Source: a virus
Virus record (IMG/VR): IMGVR_UViG_3300037297_000388
Location: 2,177-66,176 of that record
Strand: one strand, 5' to 3'
Length of the DNA stretch: 64,000 nt
Positions 3,200-15,380 of this stretch are shown here, one piece after another (position 1 is the first letter of the stretch; every line of letters starts with the position of its first letter). Made by a program: the position numbers and the translations under genes. The notes below the pieces were generated by a model that was not told the origin of the DNA, made no database searches, and saw nothing but the letters and a program-made list of their open reading frames with translations.

Positions 3200-3991
3200 A
3201 TGTGTAACCCAGCGAGTTTTATCATCACGCGTGAGCGCGCTCTGTTTTGCGAGACAGACAGCCACGAGGATATTATCAAAAAACACAAACTAGTGGACTC
3301 ACGCATGGAGCCTGCATTTGTGCGAGTGGAGTTGATCCCGCCGGATGGTGACTATTCATCGCCGCCAGAGAAGTGGAAGTTGGAAACAGATCAAGGCGCT
3401 GTGCCAGATTGGTACAACCCAAAATGGGCTCAACAGATGTGCCTACTAGAGATGCCGAAGTGGTGGTCAGGGCGCTTTGCGACTTCGTCTGGAGTGCTTT
3501 ATTACGAGGGTCGCAAAATAAATAAGATACCGAATAATATGACTCATATCGGCGGCTCCCTGGACCTGCGCGGCACGCAGGTGAGCGACCTTGGGCAGCT
3601 GCAGTCCGTCGGCGGCTCCCTGGACCTGCGCGGCACGCAGGTGAGCGACCTTGGGCAGTTGCAGTCCGCCGGCGGCTCCCTGGACCTGCGCGGCACGCAG
3701 GTGAGCGACCTCGGGCAGTTGCAGTCCGTCGGCGGCTCCCTGTACCTGCGCGGCACGCAGGTGAGCGACCTCGGGCAGTTGCAGTCCGTCGGCGGCTCCC
3801 TGGACCTGCGCGGCACGCAGGTGAGCGACCTTGGGCAGCTGCAGTCCGTCGGCGGCTCCCTGGACCTGCGCGGCACGCAGGTGAGCGACCTTGGGCAGTT
3901 GCAGTCCGTCGGCGGCTACTTGTACCTGCGCGGCACGCAGGTGAGCATCGCAGATCTGCCTGAAGGTTTGAAGCCACGGGATGTGTTATAA
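3200..3991 (+). CDS. Leucine-rich repeat protein
   Basis: About 6.6 copies of 20-aa GGSLDLRGTQVSDLGQLQSV (LxLxxTxV LRR pattern). Confidence 0.85.
   Translation: MCNPASFIITRERALFCETDSHEDIIKKHKLVDSRMEPAFVRVELIPPDGDYSSPPEKWKLETDQGAVPDWYNPKWAQQMCLLEMPKWWSGRFATSSGVLYYEGRKINKIPNNMTHIGGSLDLRGTQVSDLGQLQSVGGSLDLRGTQVSDLGQLQSAGGSLDLRGTQVSDLGQLQSVGGSLYLRGTQVSDLGQLQSVGGSLDLRGTQVSDLGQLQSVGGSLDLRGTQVSDLGQLQSVGGYLYLRGTQVSIADLPEGLKPRDVL
3551..3946 (+). repeat. 60-bp coding tandem repeat, 6 full copies plus a partial copy
   Basis: Units start at 3551, 3611, 3671, 3731, 3791, 3851 and 3911. Confidence 0.97.
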
Positions 3992-4759: not shown

Positions 4760-5878
4760 TTGGGCGTCAAAAAATATACGGCGAGGGACGGAAAAGCATG
4801 GTGGATGGCTGACATCCGTGTGACCATGAGAGATGGTCGCGAGAAGCGGGTCAGGAAGAAGAAGATACCGACGAAAGAGATGGCCCTCCTGTACGAGTCC
4901 AAGGTGAAGACGGCAGCATTTGAGGGGCGCTACTTTGAGACGGGAAGCAATTTGACGGTCGAACAGGTCTGGAAAATCTACGAGCCCATCACGCGGCGTG
5001 ATAACGATTCATGGCGGGACGATGTCGGACGGGCCAAGCATTTGACCCGGTTGCTGGGGAAGCGGAAGGTCGAGCAGCTCGCGCTGACACATGTTGAGCA
5101 GTACCGCAGCAGGCGGATGGATGAAGTGAGCAACCGGACGAAGCGGGTGCCGGCGATCGGGACCATCAACCGGGAGGTTGGGCTTTTGAAGCGCATGATC
5201 AACTATGCGGTTCGGCGCGGTGATCTACGGATGAATCCCATCGCGCTAGTCAGGGCGCTCCACGAGTCCAATATCCGGCAGGTTGTGATCAGCGAGCGAA
5301 GGTTCGAAGTGCTGCTCGAGAAGGCGGACCCACCATTGCGCCCGATCATCCTGTTGGCGTATGACTGCGGGATGCGGAAGATGGAGATTCTGATGTTGAG
5401 GTGGAGTCAGCTGAACCTTCACACCGGTGTGGCCTATCTCGCCCCATGGGACACGAAGACGGATGAGTCTCGGGAGATCTATTTGACGGACAGGGCCATC
5501 CGGGAGCTCCAAGCGCTGAAGGGCATCGATGATGGGTTGTTGTCAATCAACGGCTACGCCATCATCAATCCGCAGACGGGCGAGCCCTGGGTGGACATCA
5601 AGAAGATGTTCAAGCGGGCGTGTGAGGCAGCTGGGCTCGTTTACGGCAGGGACAATGGGGTGATCTTCCATGACCTACGTCGGAGCTTTGTTACCAACGC
5701 GAGGAAGAGGGGAATCCCGGAATCGGTGGTGATGGCGATGTCTGGGCACCGGACGCGGAATGTGTTTGACCGCTACAATATCGTGGACAACGCGGATCTG
5801 AAAAACGCCGTCAGGCGGATGGAGCGGGCGCGGCGGGAAGAACTCCGGGAGCAAAAAAGGAGGCGGCCGGAGGTGTGA
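4760..5878 (+). CDS. int: Tyrosine integrase
   Basis: CGMRKMEI (catalytic Arg), KT, FHDLRRSF (HxxR), SGHRTRNVFDRY (H/Y); AAGGAGG RBS. Confidence 0.95.
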   Translation: MGVKKYTARDGKAWWMADIRVTMRDGREKRVRKKKIPTKEMALLYESKVKTAAFEGRYFETGSNLTVEQVWKIYEPITRRDNDSWRDDVGRAKHLTRLLGKRKVEQLALTHVEQYRSRRMDEVSNRTKRVPAIGTINREVGLLKRMINYAVRRGDLRMNPIALVRALHESNIRQVVISERRFEVLLEKADPPLRPIILLAYDCGMRKMEILMLRWSQLNLHTGVAYLAPWDTKTDESREIYLTDRAIRELQALKGIDDGLLSINGYAIINPQTGEPWVDIKKMFKRACEAAGLVYGRDNGVIFHDLRRSFVTNARKRGIPESVVMAMSGHRTRNVFDRYNIVDNADLKNAVRRMERARREELREQKRRRPEV

Positions 5879-8060: not shown

Positions 8061-8206
8061 ACGTCGCCCAGGGGCACTGGGAGACGGAAAACGGACGTGG
8101 AGAGGGCGTCAGCCTGGGGTGTTGTCCCCAGCAATCCTCTGTGAAGCGTCAAGGCGGCTGCCATGCCTGTTGAACAGACAGACATCGGTTTAAGTCCGCT
8201 CTGCCA
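8061..8206 (+). mobile_element. tnpB-derived omegaRNA-like scaffold, copy 2
   Basis: 146-bp near-identity to 646-791. Confidence 0.75.
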
Positions 8207-8225
8207 GCCAAAGGCGTAATCAATC

Positions 8226-8645
8226 ATGGATATGAAACAGAAGCGCATGCGTCAAATCAACAAGCTGATCAGCGTGATTGCTTCATGTGGGAGAAAATTC
8301 TACTCCTACAATGGCACGGTCGCAGAATTCAAAATCTGGGGGAATGGTAGGCTTTATTTCGTCGAGCCATATGGGCGGAATTTACTGCCGTGTTACTCGA
8401 AGCCGGACAGCCATAGATGGAATACCCACCGGTGGGGTAGATTTGGCGGCGGCGGGACGCTCAAGGCCATGACAAAGTCCTTCGCTGCATACATTCTCAC
8501 CGGTGCTACGGTGCCAGCCCATCATTTTGGTCCATGGCCGGAGTGGTATTGTGGCAACCCAAATGATCTATGGGGGTACGGAGACGAAGCCATGGAGAAG
8601 GTCCGTTCTGCGGCGGTTTTGGTATCAACAGCGAGGCAAGGATGA
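8226..8645 (+). CDS. Hypothetical protein
   Basis: 139-aa ORF whose stop overlaps the csf2 start (ATGA). Confidence 0.65.
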   Translation: MDMKQKRMRQINKLISVIASCGRKFYSYNGTVAEFKIWGNGRLYFVEPYGRNLLPCYSKPDSHRWNTHRWGRFGGGGTLKAMTKSFAAYILTGATVPAHHFGPWPEWYCGNPNDLWGYGDEAMEKVRSAAVLVSTARQG

Positions 8646-9865
8646 GTAACGAAACGTTGATAAAGACGGTTACCGTAATCCGTCAAATCTATTTCAATTC
8701 GAGCATGAAAACAAGGCGCAAATATGCTGACTTCTTCACTGACCGGTTGAAGGCCGCATGCACTGAGCCGTCGTTGCTGGCCGCGGTAAACCGCCTGGGT
8801 GAGTCCGTCGACTGTTCTTTTGGATCATTGGATTCAACCACGGTGTCGGAGTTCATTCGTTGCGCAGGGGGCATCTCTTCCGCCGGCGTATTCGACTGGG
8901 TTCGGCAGTATCCGGCTATAATCACATCTCTATGTCTCCTGAAGAAGGACGATCTGGCCGAGACTGTCGCAACCATTGACATCTCCGAATCAAGAAGGTC
9001 AGGAACAGCGGTGAAGGCCCCAGCGGCGGAGATAGCCATAAACGTGAAGTGCCTTTCTCCCCTCGCCCACGGTGCTGATACCAAGTCTGGCAACTGTACT
9101 CTATTTCGTCGGATGCATGTGCTGAGCACTACCGGAGACACCCTATCTCTACCATTCTATGCTGGAAACGCAGTTCGTGGGCAAATGCGCGATTTGCTCG
9201 CCGATGATTTTATCCGGCGACTGGGGATGAGGCCAAGGCGTGACAATCCCCCTGTCTCTTTATGGTTCTTCCATGCGCTTTATGCCGGTGGTGCCCTTGA
9301 GGAGAACAGCGCGGCGGAGAAGGGACTGGGGAAGATCCTTGGGAAGAATGGCGCAGCTCGAGCGGAGGGATTCTATCAGGTTCGGAACACCCTTCCGCCG
9401 CTGTCTCTATTCGGTGCAGCCCTCGGGCGCCGGATTTTGAATGGTAGGTTTCAGTGTCACGATCTCCGCCCGGTATGTTATGAATGGGGCAACGGAGATG
9501 TACCGGTGGCGGATCTGTTTGAGTGGACATTTCTGACACGACGCGAAGATCATGAGGCTCACGATGACAATTCCAGCATGATCGCGAATACCGAAGTAAT
9601 GAAGGCCGGAGTAGATCTCACGGGCGGATTCAATATCGAATCCAACGCGACAGAGATTGAGCGCTCTGCATTGGGGCACGGGCTCGATCTTCTTGCAGCC
9701 AGGGGGATGCTCGGCGCCGAGAATCGACGAGGACTTGGCGCCGTAGAAATATCGGCGGAGAATGTCCCATCGCCGGTTACCTATCTTGATTTTATGGAGC
9801 AATCAAAGGCCGACATCCTGGCGTTTTTGTTGGAGATCGGGGCCATCAACGCTGAGGAAGCTTGA
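8642..9865 (+). CDS. csf2: Type IV Cas7 (Csf2) with N-terminal Cas11-like helical domain
   Basis: CLSPLAHGADTKSGNCTLFRR, LPFYAGNAVRGQMRDLLA, LYAGGAL, PPLSLFG, FLTRRED and Gly-rich GMLGAENRRGLG loop are Csf2-like; ~110-aa helical N-terminal extension. Confidence 0.9.
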   Translation: MSNETLIKTVTVIRQIYFNSSMKTRRKYADFFTDRLKAACTEPSLLAAVNRLGESVDCSFGSLDSTTVSEFIRCAGGISSAGVFDWVRQYPAIITSLCLLKKDDLAETVATIDISESRRSGTAVKAPAAEIAINVKCLSPLAHGADTKSGNCTLFRRMHVLSTTGDTLSLPFYAGNAVRGQMRDLLADDFIRRLGMRPRRDNPPVSLWFFHALYAGGALEENSAAEKGLGKILGKNGAARAEGFYQVRNTLPPLSLFGAALGRRILNGRFQCHDLRPVCYEWGNGDVPVADLFEWTFLTRREDHEAHDDNSSMIANTEVMKAGVDLTGGFNIESNATEIERSALGHGLDLLAARGMLGAENRRGLGAVEISAENVPSPVTYLDFMEQSKADILAFLLEIGAINAEEA

Positions 9866-10521
9866 TGCATCCGATTCAGTTGATAGCCCCGTGTATATCA
9901 GAAGAGGACTCGGGGTGCGATTTTGAGACGGTGGAGCATGTTTGCGCGGTCACTGGAGCGCGCGCCCCGTGTGTCCCTCGAAAGGCCCTTCTGAAGAAGG
10001 GATTCACCAACGAAGCGATTCTGAAGGCACCATTATCAGATTGGGTTTCGGTGGATGCCTATCGGGTACTTCGATTTCGTCCAGAGCGGTCCTGGTCATG
10101 GATCTGTGATGGAACGGATCTTGTCTTGCTCGACCGGATCGGCGTCAGGGAGATTGTGATTGAAGAGAAGTACCCTGCAGTCTGGTCTGGGTATGTGACG
10201 ACGAGCTACAAGAAGCACGGATCACTATGGGCTCGCGTCAACGCAAACGGAGTCCGGTTCTGGCGTTTCGAAGCTCTCGATGTTGACTGCTCCGACCATG
10301 GCTACCTAATGAGGGTATGGGAGCGGCTGAACGAGGAACTGAGACGCGGGTTCAGCCGGCCGACATTGGAGTCCCTTGCCTGTCCGCCTTTTTTTCTAAA
10401 AAAGGTGGGTGTGGACAAATGGCTTGAGCTCGAGCGGTGGGCTCGACCGATTGCCGCGTCTCCGCTCTATCGCTTTCTGTGCTATCTGCTTCCAAGTCAG
10501 AAGGAACTGGCCGATGAATGA
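9865..10521 (+). CDS. csf1: Type IV Csf1 (Cas8-like)
   Basis: CAVTG...KKGFTNEAILKAPLSDWVSVDAY...RSWSWIC resembles the Csf1 N-terminal pattern; coupled to csf2. Confidence 0.72.
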   Translation: MHPIQLIAPCISEEDSGCDFETVEHVCAVTGARAPCVPRKALLKKGFTNEAILKAPLSDWVSVDAYRVLRFRPERSWSWICDGTDLVLLDRIGVREIVIEEKYPAVWSGYVTTSYKKHGSLWARVNANGVRFWRFEALDVDCSDHGYLMRVWERLNEELRRGFSRPTLESLACPPFFLKKVGVDKWLELERWARPIAASPLYRFLCYLLPSQKELADE

Positions 10522-11263
10522 TACCCATATTCTCGGATGGCGGGTTCACGCAAAGACGAGAGCGTTCAAGCAGAAGGTTCGTGAGTCGATAGAAATTACT
10601 ACTGAGGCGCTTTTTGATTCCGATGTTAGGTTTTGCATCATGTGGAGCGGTGGGAAAGACTCTACGGCGATGACGCACATCGTGAAGTCGCTCCTTCCGA
10701 CCTGCCCTATTGTTTCCCAGTTTGATGACTGTGACTGGCCAGAGAAGTCGCCCTACATGGAAAGGGTGGCTGCAGAGCAGGGGTGGACCATCCATCGTGT
10801 GGAACCAGAATTTAGCGTGTGGGAAAGGACCAAGATGTTTCAGATTGGCGACGAGGACCTCTGTAAGAAATCCCACCCATTAACGAGGGAGGCCTTCCTC
10901 GATGTGCTCCATGAGGAACAGGAGAAACTTGGCTGCAGTGGTGCCTTTATTGGTCTACGCTCTCAGGAAAGCCCTGGCCGCCGAAAAAACTTCCAGGCGC
11001 GTGGGCACATATACCAGCTCAACAACGGAAAATGGCACTGTTGCCCGCTGAGCAGCTGGACATCACAGGACGTCTTCGCCTATCTTTCTGCTGTGGATAT
11101 TGAAATAAACCCATGCTATTTTAAAAACGCCATATGGGAACCGGAGGAGATCCGCCTTTCATGGGCATTGCCAACAATTTGGTGGAAGGGTCAGGATATT
11201 GAACATTTACGACGTTACTATCCAGAACAATTTCGCAGACTAAGAGAAAGGGGAACACAATGA
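10514..11263 (+). CDS. cysH: CysH-like PAPS-reductase-family protein (type IV-B associated)
   Basis: WSGGKDSTAM PP-loop, FIGLRSQESPGR, CPLSSWTSQDVFAY. Confidence 0.88.
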   Translation: MNDTHILGWRVHAKTRAFKQKVRESIEITTEALFDSDVRFCIMWSGGKDSTAMTHIVKSLLPTCPIVSQFDDCDWPEKSPYMERVAAEQGWTIHRVEPEFSVWERTKMFQIGDEDLCKKSHPLTREAFLDVLHEEQEKLGCSGAFIGLRSQESPGRRKNFQARGHIYQLNNGKWHCCPLSSWTSQDVFAYLSAVDIEINPCYFKNAIWEPEEIRLSWALPTIWWKGQDIEHLRRYYPEQFRRLRERGTQ

Positions 11264-11841
11264 GTAACACCGTGAGCAACACAGTATTGATTGGGGAGCT
11301 TACTTTGGAGCGCGCAAAAATGGTACTACAGGGAAAGAAGGCTGATATTGTCTACTCAGACCCACCCTGGGGACCTGGTAATCTCCGCTACTGGAGGACG
11401 ATGAACAATGAAGGAAATGAAGTCAACTGGAAAAAATTTCTTCATTTATTCTGCCAGGTGGTGAAGGATAGCACAAATCCGACATCGGAGATTTTCGTTG
11501 AGATGGGGACCCGCTGGATCGACGAGTTGGCGGCTGAGATGGCGTCCGTCGGTATTCAGGAGACGCAGCGGTTTGAGTGTTCATATCGGGGGGGCGCGAA
11601 GAGGTATCGAAACTTTCTATGGCACGCGGGGACACATATAGTACCAACTGAACTCAATGGTGGGGTGAAGATGACGATGGGGATTCTTTCCGCCGTTGCG
11701 AAAGATGGTGCCATCGTTTTTGATCCATGCTGTGGCAAGGGAATGAGCGCAAAATGCGCAATTAAAAACAATATGAAATTTGTAGGAATTGAACTAAATG
11801 CCAAACGCGCGGCGATGACGCAGAAAATATTAACCAAATGA
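11260..11841 (+). CDS. Small N6A/N4C-type methyltransferase
   Basis: YSDPPW (motif IV) followed by VFDPCCGKG (motif I) and GIELN. Confidence 0.8.
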   Translation: MSNTVSNTVLIGELTLERAKMVLQGKKADIVYSDPPWGPGNLRYWRTMNNEGNEVNWKKFLHLFCQVVKDSTNPTSEIFVEMGTRWIDELAAEMASVGIQETQRFECSYRGGAKRYRNFLWHAGTHIVPTELNGGVKMTMGILSAVAKDGAIVFDPCCGKGMSAKCAIKNNMKFVGIELNAKRAAMTQKILTK

Positions 11842-12167
11842 GGCTTGAGGAGGTAGTTCGGGAGGCCAGAAAAGAATATCAATCAAGTTTGAAGCCCAAA
11901 ACTGCGCCGACTCCAATATATTACAGTGGAAAGATTGTTGGAGTTTATCATCCTCACAGTTGTAAATATGGGCGTCGAATTGGGCCAATTTTTGTGCTTC
12001 CAGAATACCGCGGACGCGGGATTGCCCTTGGTATATATAACAGTATCAGCGGAGAACTTGTTGCATGTGTAAGAGACGATAATATTGCTGGTATCCGACT
12101 TCATGAGGCGGCTGGGTTTATACGGTTCCGTCGATATCAATACGGATGGTGGATGGTTAGAAAATGA
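11838..12167 (+). CDS. GNAT-family acetyltransferase
   Basis: IFVLPEYRGRGIA acetyl-CoA motif; NIAGIRLHEAAGF. Confidence 0.8.
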   Translation: MRLEEVVREARKEYQSSLKPKTAPTPIYYSGKIVGVYHPHSCKYGRRIGPIFVLPEYRGRGIALGIYNSISGELVACVRDDNIAGIRLHEAAGFIRFRRYQYGWWMVRK

Positions 12168-13024
12168 TTTTCCTTGGCGTTTCAATTGAAGAGAAAATTG
12201 ACGGTGTTAGAAGATACTGCACAAGACACAAAATAAAAAAAACGTTTATGATTTCTCCAGAGAAGTTCGTTTTTCAACCAGATGATGCCGAAACAATAGA
12301 ATACAGTGACGCCATAAAATACAAATACTACTACCGCCTCCTGCAAGAGATTGACCACAACACTCTGATTGTAATCAACGAGTGTCTCCGCACCCAAAAT
12401 AGATACGACCTGACATACAACTGCATCCGCAATTACCTGAATCAAACACATCACCAGATCATCTTTCAAAACCTTCCACTCATCGATACTTTTAATGACT
12501 TCATGATCCTATTTGATTTCGACACGAGGAGCCGCTGGAAACGTGAATCGTTCCGACGTGAGTTGCTGGCTGAGTGCAAAATAGTAAACCGAATCCGACC
12601 GATCACAATTTCACCGATAATAACCAAGGCGAACACTCAGACGCATGCGATCTATCAGAAGAAAAAAAGGAAACTCATTGATGAAATAGGGCTGAAGGAT
12701 CCCCATACTATACCGCGTAACCTCTATCTAATCGGTGGGAAAACCCGCCAGAGGTTGGTCCGCGCCGACGTGAACTATGTTGGGAGGAATAACCGGTTGA
12801 AGATTCCGACGTTGAAAACCTATCGAGAGAAGTTATTTCCACCGGATAACACTGTCTTTGAACTTCCCCATAATTTCATAGACTTCTCTGATTTTATAAC
12901 GCTGTCTGGCCAGGTCGACTTCGAAGTACTGGTGACAGACCTCAAGGTGGATCAGTGGTATCTGGATAGGTACCAAAAGTGGGCAGAGAGGATTGAAAAT
13001 GCTCGTTCAGTCCTACAGCAATAA
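12164..13024 (+). CDS. Hypothetical protein, possibly a degenerate SF2/RecA-like fold
   Basis: TLIVINEC resembles a degenerate Walker B; no Walker A seen; coupled on both sides. Confidence 0.6.
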   Translation: MIFLGVSIEEKIDGVRRYCTRHKIKKTFMISPEKFVFQPDDAETIEYSDAIKYKYYYRLLQEIDHNTLIVINECLRTQNRYDLTYNCIRNYLNQTHHQIIFQNLPLIDTFNDFMILFDFDTRSRWKRESFRRELLAECKIVNRIRPITISPIITKANTQTHAIYQKKKRKLIDEIGLKDPHTIPRNLYLIGGKTRQRLVRADVNYVGRNNRLKIPTLKTYREKLFPPDNTVFELPHNFIDFSDFITLSGQVDFEVLVTDLKVDQWYLDRYQKWAERIENARSVLQQ

Positions 13025-14126
13025 GACCGTCCTTGATGCCGCCCGGGAGCGGATGGCTTTCATCTTTGATGAATTCGAGACCATCATCGTGTCCATCAGC
13101 GGTGGAAAAGACTCAACAGTGTTGGCTTATCTGGCCCTCCATGAGGCGTCCTCGAGGGGGAGAAAAGTTGGGCTTTATTTTCTAGACGAAGAGGTGGTGT
13201 ACCAGAGCACAGTTGATCAGGTCGACTACCTGATGGACCTCTTTCCGGACACCGTGACGAAGATCTGGTTTCAGATTGAGTGTTGCCTCACGAACTCCAC
13301 GTCTGTGTCTGAGGGACAGCTCATCTGTTGGGAGGCAGGCAAGCACGAGATCTGGATGCGTCACAAAAAGCCGTTCGCCATTCAGCACCGAATGTGGCCA
13401 GCGGAAGAACAGACGGTTCGCGACAAAAACAAAGGGTTTGGGTTCTACGATGTCATCGACAACTTCGAGCGGTGCTACCACAGCGCCGCATTTTTGGTAG
13501 GGCTGAGGGCCGCGGGGGAGTCCCCAAACAGGTGGCGCGCAGTGGTCAAGAACCCCGTTCTGATCGGCGGGAAGAAGGTATATTGGGGCACGAAGAAGGG
13601 CAACAACGTGGCCCTTTATCCACTGTATGACTGGAATTTCCATGATGTCTGGAAGTATATCCATGACGCCGGCATCCGGTACTCGAAGATCTATGATATG
13701 CAGTTCAAGAAGGGCTATCCAATCACCCAAATGAGGGTGTCCTCGCTGATCCATGAACGGGCTTTCAAGAGCATCTGTGATCTTCCAGAGTTTGAGCCGA
13801 AGACCTTTGACCAACTGAGCAAACGCATCAAGGGCATCTCACTTGCTCAGGAAACTGGAAAGAACGCAAAGCTGTTTGCATGCAGAAAGCTCCCAAAGAA
13901 TTTCAAGTCATGGATCACCTACCGTGATTTTCTCATTTCCACCCATCAGGATCAGGAGAGACTTTCGATATTTCAAAAACGCTTCAGGAAGCACCTAAAC
14001 AACGAATATGTGGCGAGGCAGCAATGCCGGCAGCTTATTTTAAACGATTATGAAAACAACCTCCCCGTGGACAATAAACCAGACCCACGGGAAGATCTCA
14101 TCAAATACTACGACGAGGTTTTGTGA
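12999..14126 (+). CDS. ibrA: IbrA/YbdN-like PAPS-reductase-family protein (DUF3440-type C-terminus)
   Basis: TVLDAARERMAFIFDEF, SISGGKDSTVL, FLDEE, VGLRAAGESPNR, YPLYDWNFHDVWKY, MRVSSLIHE. Confidence 0.85.
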   Translation: MLVQSYSNKTVLDAARERMAFIFDEFETIIVSISGGKDSTVLAYLALHEASSRGRKVGLYFLDEEVVYQSTVDQVDYLMDLFPDTVTKIWFQIECCLTNSTSVSEGQLICWEAGKHEIWMRHKKPFAIQHRMWPAEEQTVRDKNKGFGFYDVIDNFERCYHSAAFLVGLRAAGESPNRWRAVVKNPVLIGGKKVYWGTKKGNNVALYPLYDWNFHDVWKYIHDAGIRYSKIYDMQFKKGYPITQMRVSSLIHERAFKSICDLPEFEPKTFDQLSKRIKGISLAQETGKNAKLFACRKLPKNFKSWITYRDFLISTHQDQERLSIFQKRFRKHLNNEYVARQQCRQLILNDYENNLPVDNKPDPREDLIKYYDEVL

Positions 14127-14728
14127 TGGTACATCGCGTCGACACAATAGAGCAGTTTCTCGAGATTAGAGACAAGTTGGAGCACGTCTACATCAACTCG
14201 AAGACGCGAGGTAAAGTACTCGTCCCGTGTTGCAACACGATTCTGGCCTCGACAAAACTCATCATAGAAAATCAGTATAACCCAAACCACGTACCAGCCG
14301 AGAAGATGGCGCTATTGAGTCAGTCGATTCTCGACAACGGATTTTGTTTCCCAGTGGTGGTGATCTACGATGATGAGTCCGAGCTCTTTGTCGTGATAGA
14401 TGGCTTTCATCGGACGATTATCGGCGGGGATGGCTGGTTGGAGTTCGACTACATCCCGCTGGTGGTACTTGACCATGACATCAAGAAGAGAATGGCGGCA
14501 ACGGTGCAGTTCAATAAGGCCCGCGGTGTTCACCAAGTAGATCTTGATGCGGATGTCATCCGGGCGCTCATCGAACAAGGGATGTCCGAGGATGAAATCT
14601 GCGCCCACCTTGGGATCGATGAGGATACGGTCCATCGATACAAGCAGCTCACCGGGATTGCTGAGCTCTTCAAGAACGCGGACTATTCCATGAGCTGGGA
14701 GATGAAGGATGTGAAGGATGGCTCTTAG
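14126..14728 (+). CDS. ibrB: IbrB/YbdM-like ParB/Srx-domain protein
   Basis: NQYNPNHV, SILDNGFCFPVV, VIDGFHR, ATVQFNKARGVH, C-terminal HTH. Confidence 0.88.
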   Translation: MVHRVDTIEQFLEIRDKLEHVYINSKTRGKVLVPCCNTILASTKLIIENQYNPNHVPAEKMALLSQSILDNGFCFPVVVIYDDESELFVVIDGFHRTIIGGDGWLEFDYIPLVVLDHDIKKRMAATVQFNKARGVHQVDLDADVIRALIEQGMSEDEICAHLGIDEDTVHRYKQLTGIAELFKNADYSMSWEMKDVKDGS

Positions 14729-15380
14729 ACCACTTAAAATAACTTTCCACATGGATGGCACTGGTGCCTTCTACGACCCGTCCGAACCAATGCACCTGGA
14801 TGGACTATTGGCGTGGGCGTTGTGTTTATACCAGACGTCAGGGGAGCCACCGGCGGCCGATGAAAAGCCGTTTGAACCACGGCTGCCACTCGGAAAATGG
14901 CATATTGGGGGCCAATGGGGCTGGACCGCCAGCGCCATCCTACCGGTGGGGGATAAACAGTGGGGGATGCAGCGCTTCATCAAGCGTTTTCGTGAGAATC
15001 GAATTGAGATCACAAAGGGATCACCGAATATGCAGATGAGCACCTATCGGAAATACTGTGTACCGATGCCGCTGGTGCTTTCTCATCAATTTGTAGCCTA
15101 TGCCCTGGGCCCAAGGGGCCGCGTTCACCAGATCCTGAAGAAAAACATCAAATTTCTCGGCAGAAAACGGGCCGCTGGCAAAGGTCGGATCGTGGACATT
15201 ACCACCGAAGAGATAGCCGATGATTTCTCACTTGTGAAGGATGGCCGAGCGAATCGGTATCTTCCAAAAGATGGAGCTCAGAGGCAAGTCAGAACACGCC
15301 CGCCCTACTGGAATATGTGGGGGCGCGTTCCTTGCTGTGAGGTGGGAGAGGCGTATCAACTGGATACAATTAATGGTTGA
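14718..15380 (+). CDS. csf3: Type IV Cas5 (Csf3)
   Basis: PLKITF, HLDGLLAWA, LPL..W...WGWTAS, FLGRKRAAGKGRI Gly loop, RPPYW. Confidence 0.88.
   Translation: MALRPLKITFHMDGTGAFYDPSEPMHLDGLLAWALCLYQTSGEPPAADEKPFEPRLPLGKWHIGGQWGWTASAILPVGDKQWGMQRFIKRFRENRIEITKGSPNMQMSTYRKYCVPMPLVLSHQFVAYALGPRGRVHQILKKNIKFLGRKRAAGKGRIVDITTEEIADDFSLVKDGRANRYLPKDGAQRQVRTRPPYWNMWGRVPCCEVGEAYQLDTING

Follow-up and report, generated by a model that had tools for sequence, protein, structure and literature searches.

Type IV-B is, to our knowledge, the least understood class 1 CRISPR-Cas subtype, which lacks both an array and a nuclease and has no known function. The window analyzed here, a stretch of 64,000 nucleotides, belongs to an IMG/VR record, a metagenome-derived provirus 66 kb long that has a tyrosine integrase at 4760-5878. 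A preliminary description had proposed that a Cas11-like small subunit is fused to the N-terminus of Csf2 (Cas7) in this virus, at coordinates 8642-9010, which correspond to residues 1-123 of the encoded protein. Is this gene a genuine fusion of cas11 and csf2, and what would such a fusion mean for the effector complex?

The frame from the ATG at 8642 to the stop at 9865 on the plus strand is a single open frame of 407 residues with no interruption. GAGG sits 5 nt 5′ of this ATG, which shares an ATGA overlap with the stop of the preceding ORF. A longer ORF starting at ATG 8570 was rejected, since the alignments of the homologues begin at the Met of 8642. There are 346 homologous database proteins of about 400-440 residues, with 97-100% coverage of the 407-residue protein and 44-63% identity; the NCBI label for the fused homologues is 'hypothetical'. 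A contig in Logan, from a run on a wetland metagenome and separately assembled with a different assembler although probably from the source sample, matches 8200-10600 at a depth of 22 with 0 differences and 0 gaps. Thus, the N-terminal extension is a conserved domain and not an effect of chance or of assembly. The preliminary description had also left room for a sequencing error or an internal start near 8980-9030. No stop or frameshift was found there in either the window or the Logan contig, nor was a conserved internal start. The fusion of cas11 and csf2 in ORF 8642-9865 is confirmed as real and is not an artefact.

Table 1. Domains of the fusion gene and the genes that follow it in the operon, with positions in the window.
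Feature	Position	Strand	Evidence
Cas11 (small-subunit) domain, residues 1-112	8642-8977	+	Model, VIA-align, PDB profile, hhalign, PADLOC
Linker of ~20 residues, residues about 113-130	8978-9031	+	No regular secondary structure, lower pLDDT
Csf2 (type IV Cas7, RAMP) domain, residues 131-407 and stop codon	9032-9865	+	PADLOC, PDB profile, Foldseek
csf1-like large subunit, 219 residues	9862-10521	+	PADLOC Csf1_0_IV, E = 3.1e-4, profile positions 23-210 of 227
cysH-like PP-loop gene (PAPS-reductase family)	10514-11263	+	Pfam PAPS_reduct, E = 2.5e-17
Inserted block: N6/N4 DNA methylase, GNAT, 286-residue ORF, IbrA-like, ParB/IbrB-like	11260-14728	+	Pfam/PHROGs
csf3 (type IV Cas5)	14718-15380	+	PADLOC Csf3_0_IV, E = 6.6e-30; NCBIfam TIGR03116, E = 6.8e-20

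The AlphaFold2 model, prepared with a 36-sequence alignment, shows a seven-helix bundle for residues 2-110, so the leading part is indeed helical, as had been noticed. The domain alone was modelled with a pLDDT of 93.5 and a pTM of 0.85, and the whole protein with a pLDDT of 85.4. The length of the N-terminal 125 residues is conserved, R26, D34, and R88 are invariant, and R14, L52, and W86 are near-invariant. The linker is variable in the alignment except for the nearly invariant G121 and A123. The remainder of the protein is recognizable as Csf2: PADLOC Csf2_0_IV matches residues 131-396 with E = 1.6e-44, the profile of this domain finds IV-C Cas7c (E = 1.5e-12) and the Csf2 of 7JHY (E = 1.6e-8) in the PDB, and the best Foldseek matches for the whole model are type IV-A and IV-B Cas7, with E about 1e-10. 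The observation that the Csf2 motifs come late in the ORF holds, as the profile match starts at residue 131 and CLSPLAHG is just beyond. NCBIfam and Pfam give only weak Csf2/RAMP signals for the fusion ORF, and the score for TIGR03115, the Csf2 equivalog, is 27.3 bits, which does not reach the cut-off of 130. Since the clade is too divergent for TIGR03115, we file the Cas7 domain as a divergent Csf2 and not as an equivalog.

What is the N-terminal domain? When its model was compared exhaustively by VIA-align with 48,161 representative PDB chains, including the type IV-B Cas11 suggested earlier as the reference, the chain ranked first was 7jhy_h, with an rmsd of 3.1 Å over 99 residues and Z = 8.6, which falls short of the level (about 13) below which VIA-align itself advises caution with helical bundles. 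A repeat search gave the same top match, 7JHY Cas11, with which the domain has 9% identity. The solved type IV Cas11 has a helix arrangement of its own (PMC7937560). The 7JHY complex consists of six Csf2 and five Cas11 and nothing else (PMC7937560), and its Csf2 chain has 300 residues; hence, the 143-residue chain is Cas11. Rank 2 went to 8fcj_J (Z = 5.5), which has 109 residues, belongs to a type I-B CAST Cascade, and is, as we read it, the Cas11 of that complex; all of the remaining chains have Z below 5. Foldseek with the domain model against the PDB gave nothing at E ≤ 0.001; the highest CRISPR-related entry was from type I-A, with E = 3.3. Because Z is below the caution level and Foldseek is empty, the fold match counts only jointly with the sequence evidence.

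The sequence evidence does not depend on the fold match and points the same way. In the PDB, the profile of the N-terminal domain finds the type IV-C Cas11c of P. abyssi (PDB 11FS, PMC13676074) with E = 1.4e-4. Against 1.84 billion cluster representatives, it finds three proteins of 106-112 residues (P0283, P0284, and P0286; E = 3e-5 to 4e-4), all of which are typeIV_Cas11 by PADLOC (E = 1e-16 to 1e-20). One of the three, P0283, is from a textbook operon, Csf1-Cas11-RAMP-Csf3-PAPS_reduct, and the match to the standalone Cas11 of the canonical csf1-cas11-csf2-csf3-cysH operon has E = 3.3e-5. Of 111 cluster representatives matched, 55 have 380-520 residues, and among the matches listed, it is their N-terminus that the profile matches. 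A word-indexed search with this profile among proteins of 66-228 residues gave three fragments only. The single PADLOC match for residues 1-125 alone is Cas11_0_IV (E = 0.0035), a profile that also matches weakly in control genomes.

Comparison with standalone genes gives the same answer. In at least 14 unfused viral csf2 loci, the N-terminal domain profile matches an ORF of 113-179 residues directly upstream, and PADLOC identifies each of the 10 upstream ORFs tested as type IV Cas11 (E = 1e-13 to 1e-28). The hhalign comparison of the fused N-terminal domains with twelve standalone phage Cas11 proteins gave 97.1% and E = 7.5e-11 over 98 columns, in which R14, F32, D34, and R88 of the fused domain align to conserved positions of standalone Cas11. 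In the reverse search, the standalone Cas11 profile matches the N-termini of 11 fused proteins; against PDB sequences, the same profile found no Cas11. Neither this profile nor the operon census revealed a separate cas11 in the fused loci. The 139-residue ORF at 8226-8645, upstream of the fusion gene, was considered as a separate cas11 and rejected; it has no PADLOC or Pfam match, matches only PHROG families of unknown function and neither Cas11 profile, and lies beside the cassette without being conserved. Thus the fold, the profiles, the comparison with standalone genes, and the absence of a separate cas11 are four independent lines that agree in supporting the assignment of the N-terminal domain as the Cas11 small subunit, fused N-terminal to Csf2 as had been claimed.

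The csf1-like gene overlaps the stop of the fusion gene. Its assignment is weak by itself, given the PADLOC E value of 3.1e-4, but a profile made from it also finds csf1 upstream of cas11 in unfused loci, which ties the window gene to the csf1 of those loci. The cysH-like gene occupies the same slot in relatives. In the inserted block, the IbrA-like gene has the composition PAPS_reduct+DUF3440, and IbrA/IbrB blocks sit in the same slot in other fused loci. The operon order in the window is cas11::csf2-csf1-cysH-MTase/GNAT/IbrA/IbrB block-csf3. The type IV-B core functions csf1, cas11, csf2, and csf3 are all present, together with the cysH-like gene. No CRISPR array-like repeats or tRNA were found in the window, and Rfam at the gathering threshold gave no family over its whole length. 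Among the ORFs annotated between 6600 and 15380, there is no cas6, dinG, or adaptation gene. Elsewhere in the window, a 60-nt unit is repeated in tandem 6.6 times (96% matches) at 3549-3946; this array lies within the ORF at 3200-3991 and corresponds to a 20-residue protein repeat.

How widespread is the fused gene? A scan of IMG/VR returned 80 loci, a sample that covers loci found by two peptide patterns, and about 50 of these have the full-length fused gene. The same fusion, which the preliminary description had thought worth seeking in related phages, is not limited to the window. In distant IMG/VR loci, the Cas7 match begins at query residue ~135. The fused form is present in fifty viral contigs and in eight species genomes, the latter being at least eight of about 185,000 matched in a pattern-limited scan. 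The hosts belong to several phyla and include Nitrospirae and Sulfuriferula, both with Mu-like prophages, as well as Pedobacter, Anaerolineales, Rubrivivax, Desulfofustis, Pseudomonadales, and Syntrophaceae. In Sulfuriferula multivorans (loci L003/L088), the four-gene cassette lies between a Mu-type portal gene and a Mu F-like head gene, and thus within the genes for head morphogenesis of a Mu-like prophage, which is an odd site for a defence-type operon.

A maximum-likelihood tree with 84 rows, built from nothing but the Cas7 domain, has a branch (UFBoot 100 / SH-aLRT 99) with all 54 fused genes to one side, and one change is enough in 100% of the bootstrap trees. The tree is unrooted, so that one fusion and one fission fit it alike, and its sample is bounded by the search patterns. 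The fusion marks a whole clade of phage-borne type IV-B systems. In the operon census, the gene order of the unfused loci is csf1-cas11-csf2, then csf3 and cysH, and that of the fused loci is cas11::csf2-csf1-cysH-csf3. Between csf1 and csf3 there is a slot with interchangeable content. It holds cysH in most fused loci, ibrA-ibrB instead of cysH in at least six, and ibrA-ibrB together with cysH in at least four others and the window; a DNA methylase is often present in the loci with ibrA-ibrB (L008, L019, L027, L030, L035, L087, L036, L046, L049, and L055).

A third clade of phage type IV Cas7 (L057, L064, L065, L067, L068, L069, and L076; longest ORFs of 495-826 residues), which we call X-cas7, has a conserved N-terminal extension of ~170 residues and the gene order X-cas7 - csf3 - cysH. 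Neither a csf1 nor a cas11 gene was detected in these loci. By hhalign, the extension matches standalone Cas11 with E = 0.0027 and 11% probability, and comparison with the fused N-terminal domain and with Csf1 gave nothing useful. It may be a second, independent fusion.

Could Cas11 and Cas7 still be made from the fused DNA as separate proteins, wholly or in part, by internal initiation or by proteolysis of the linker? In the window gene, codon 124 is an in-frame GTG with AGGA six bases ahead of it, and no part of the protein is less conserved, or modelled with less confidence, than the linker. There is also a precedent, since the Cas11 of several type I systems is translated from within cas8. 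Furthermore, in two members of the fused clade the gene is interrupted right in the linker, in L047 (2473-3776) by a frameshift and in L097 (2550-3755) by one in-frame TAA, which suggests that the halves can be tolerated apart; these breaks, seen in one contig each, may be sequencing error, pseudogene, or natural fission. However, a Shine-Dalgarno-like site with a start codon occurs in the linker in 9 of 49 distinct fused genes, as compared with 80 of 532 background windows, and so is not enriched. At codon 124 the homologues have V, L, H, or I, so that the AGGA-N6-GTG of the window is not conserved, and hundreds of homologues keep the frame open across the linker. We therefore consider separate products improbable.

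Still less probable is that the N-terminal domain is an unrelated phage helical module, adaptor or regulatory, which resembles Cas11 only in being a small helical bundle. The lack of a significant Foldseek match, a Z score that is middling for helical proteins, and the low identity to 7JHY Cas11 speak for such a module. The hhalign match to standalone Cas11, by contrast, does not depend on the fold, the library-wide matches are canonical type IV-B Cas11, and the PDB profile match is the IV-C Cas11c. In addition, the matched standalone genes are always directly upstream of csf2, and no other cas11 exists in the fused loci. As for an assembly or sequencing artefact that has joined two real genes, its sole support is that the record is a metagenome-derived provirus. 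The independent Logan assembly is identical, and neither an indel nor a stop is seen within 8978-9031 in the contigs; the architecture is shared by homologues that come from many samples and sources, and the fusion recurs in viral contigs and species genomes, so that we give an artefact hardly any credence.

We thus favor, with a probability of about 0.88, a natural fusion of cas11 and csf2 in an array-less prophage type IV-B-like system, which probably arose by merger of adjacent genes and would encode a co-assembling protomer. The most likely course is that adjacent cas11 and csf2 merged, while sister loci kept both genes apart as csf1-cas11-csf2. The csf1 gene would have relocated downstream, after the fusion or along with it, to give cas11::csf2-csf1-cysH(/ibrAB)-csf3. 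The analysis shows the domain identities, the conservation, the single grouping on the tree, and the operon order, whereas assembly as one chain and the geometry of the filament we infer. By analogy with 7JHY, the Cas7 domains would polymerize on bound RNA as the backbone, and the Cas11 domain of each protomer, held by its tether of ~20 residues, would form the minor 'belly' filament at the Cas7-Cas7 interfaces. Csf1 and Csf3 would cap the complex.

What would the fusion change in the stoichiometry? For n Cas7 there would be n Cas11 and not n-1, with one extra Cas11 domain at one end, and the tether would guarantee the co-assembly of the Cas11 and Cas7 filaments. Every Cas11 of 7JHY lies at an interface between two Csf2, at 5 Cas11 per 6 Csf2 (PMC7937560). 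Since the canonical IV-B complex already has this ratio, a forced 1:1 ratio changes little. The preliminary description had called the 1:1 stoichiometry an unusual architecture, and this needs correction: the ratio itself is near the canonical 5:6, whereas the covalent tether and the reordered operon are unusual. These two are the real differences of the fused system.

The canonical type IV-B system of Mycobacterium sp. JS623 (7JHY; PMC7937560, PMC8175902) shares with the window the four core components and a cysH-like gene, and it is without an array, cas6, dinG, and adaptation genes, none of which was seen in the window. However, its cas11 and csf2 are separate, with csf1 upstream, whereas the window has one gene with csf1 downstream. 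The canonical system is on an actinobacterial plasmid and that of the window in a phage or prophage, and in the window the MTase/GNAT/IbrA/IbrB block lies between cysH and csf3. Because cas11 is fused and the order csf1-cas11-csf2-csf3 is lacking, we class the window system as a type IV-B variant. The nearest relatives of its Cas7 domain outside the fused clade are in unfused phage IV-B loci (for example L058-L063, L070-L074, L077-L086, and the P0283 operon, L095/L096). The accessory genes are the same there (cysH and in some cases ibrA/ibrB), and the standalone Cas11 is detectably homologous to the fused N-terminal domain; these loci differ in having a cas11 of 111-184 residues directly upstream of a csf2 of 267-380 residues, in the order csf1-cas11-csf2, and lie on the opposite side of the branch supported at 100/99.

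Joined effector subunits are known from other systems. In type III-E Cas7-11 (gRAMP), III-I Cas7-11i, and III-Dv (PMC12669027, PMC11026444), Cas11 is also covalently joined to Cas7 domains. Those proteins are single and non-polymerizing, and each combines one Cas11 with three or four Cas7 domains that differ from one another, whereas the window protein has one Cas11-Cas7 unit and is expected, by analogy with 7JHY, to polymerize as a repeating protomer. The type III and type IV fusions are of independent origin. In types I-B, I-C, and I-D, Cas11 likewise shares an ORF with another effector subunit (bioRxiv 10.1101/2020.04.18.045682), but there it is the C-terminal part of the large subunit, cas8, made from an internal start; in the window, Cas11 is N-terminal to Cas7 and no conserved internal start was found. 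The Csf3-Csf1 fusion of type IV-E is also a fusion of type IV subunits and reflects their proximity in the complex, but it joins the Cas5 and Cas8-like subunits, each present once per complex, and not two repeating subunits (PMC7038947).

The reviews and classifications covered describe a separate cas11 in type IV-B, consistent with the earlier statement that it is normally a gene of its own, and Csf3-Csf1 of IV-E is the only type IV subunit fusion that they name (PMC7038947). A Cas11-Csf2 fusion is not mentioned in PMC8175902, PMC7038947, PMC12669027, PMC11656645, or PMC13676074. Phrase searches of the literature, in which few subscription papers are covered, returned Cas11-Cas7 fusions in type III only. 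The present gene is the first case that we could find of two repeating class 1 effector subunits that are fused and yet expected to polymerize.

What does the fusion mean for type IV-B? The fused system is a variant of the known type IV-B system, and its biological role is inferred. The fusion confirms by comparative genomics that Cas11 and Csf2 are an obligate pair near 1:1. It also offers a simpler, three-protein effector (the fusion, Csf1, and Csf3) for reconstitution, cryo-EM, and sequencing of bound RNA, and it marks a coherent phage clade with a varying accessory slot, which gives leverage on the purpose of the complex. We suggest tentatively, at somewhat less than even odds, that the fused genes constitute an undescribed, mainly phage-borne type IV-B variant with a single self-polymerizing Cas11-Cas7 protomer from which both effector filaments are built, csf1 downstream, and an interchangeable accessory slot. 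If this is true, the complex would be a general RNA-scaffolded platform for the delivery of PP-loop nucleotide-modifying enzymes, with a role in phage-host or phage-phage conflict, and not a CRISPR-guided interference machine.
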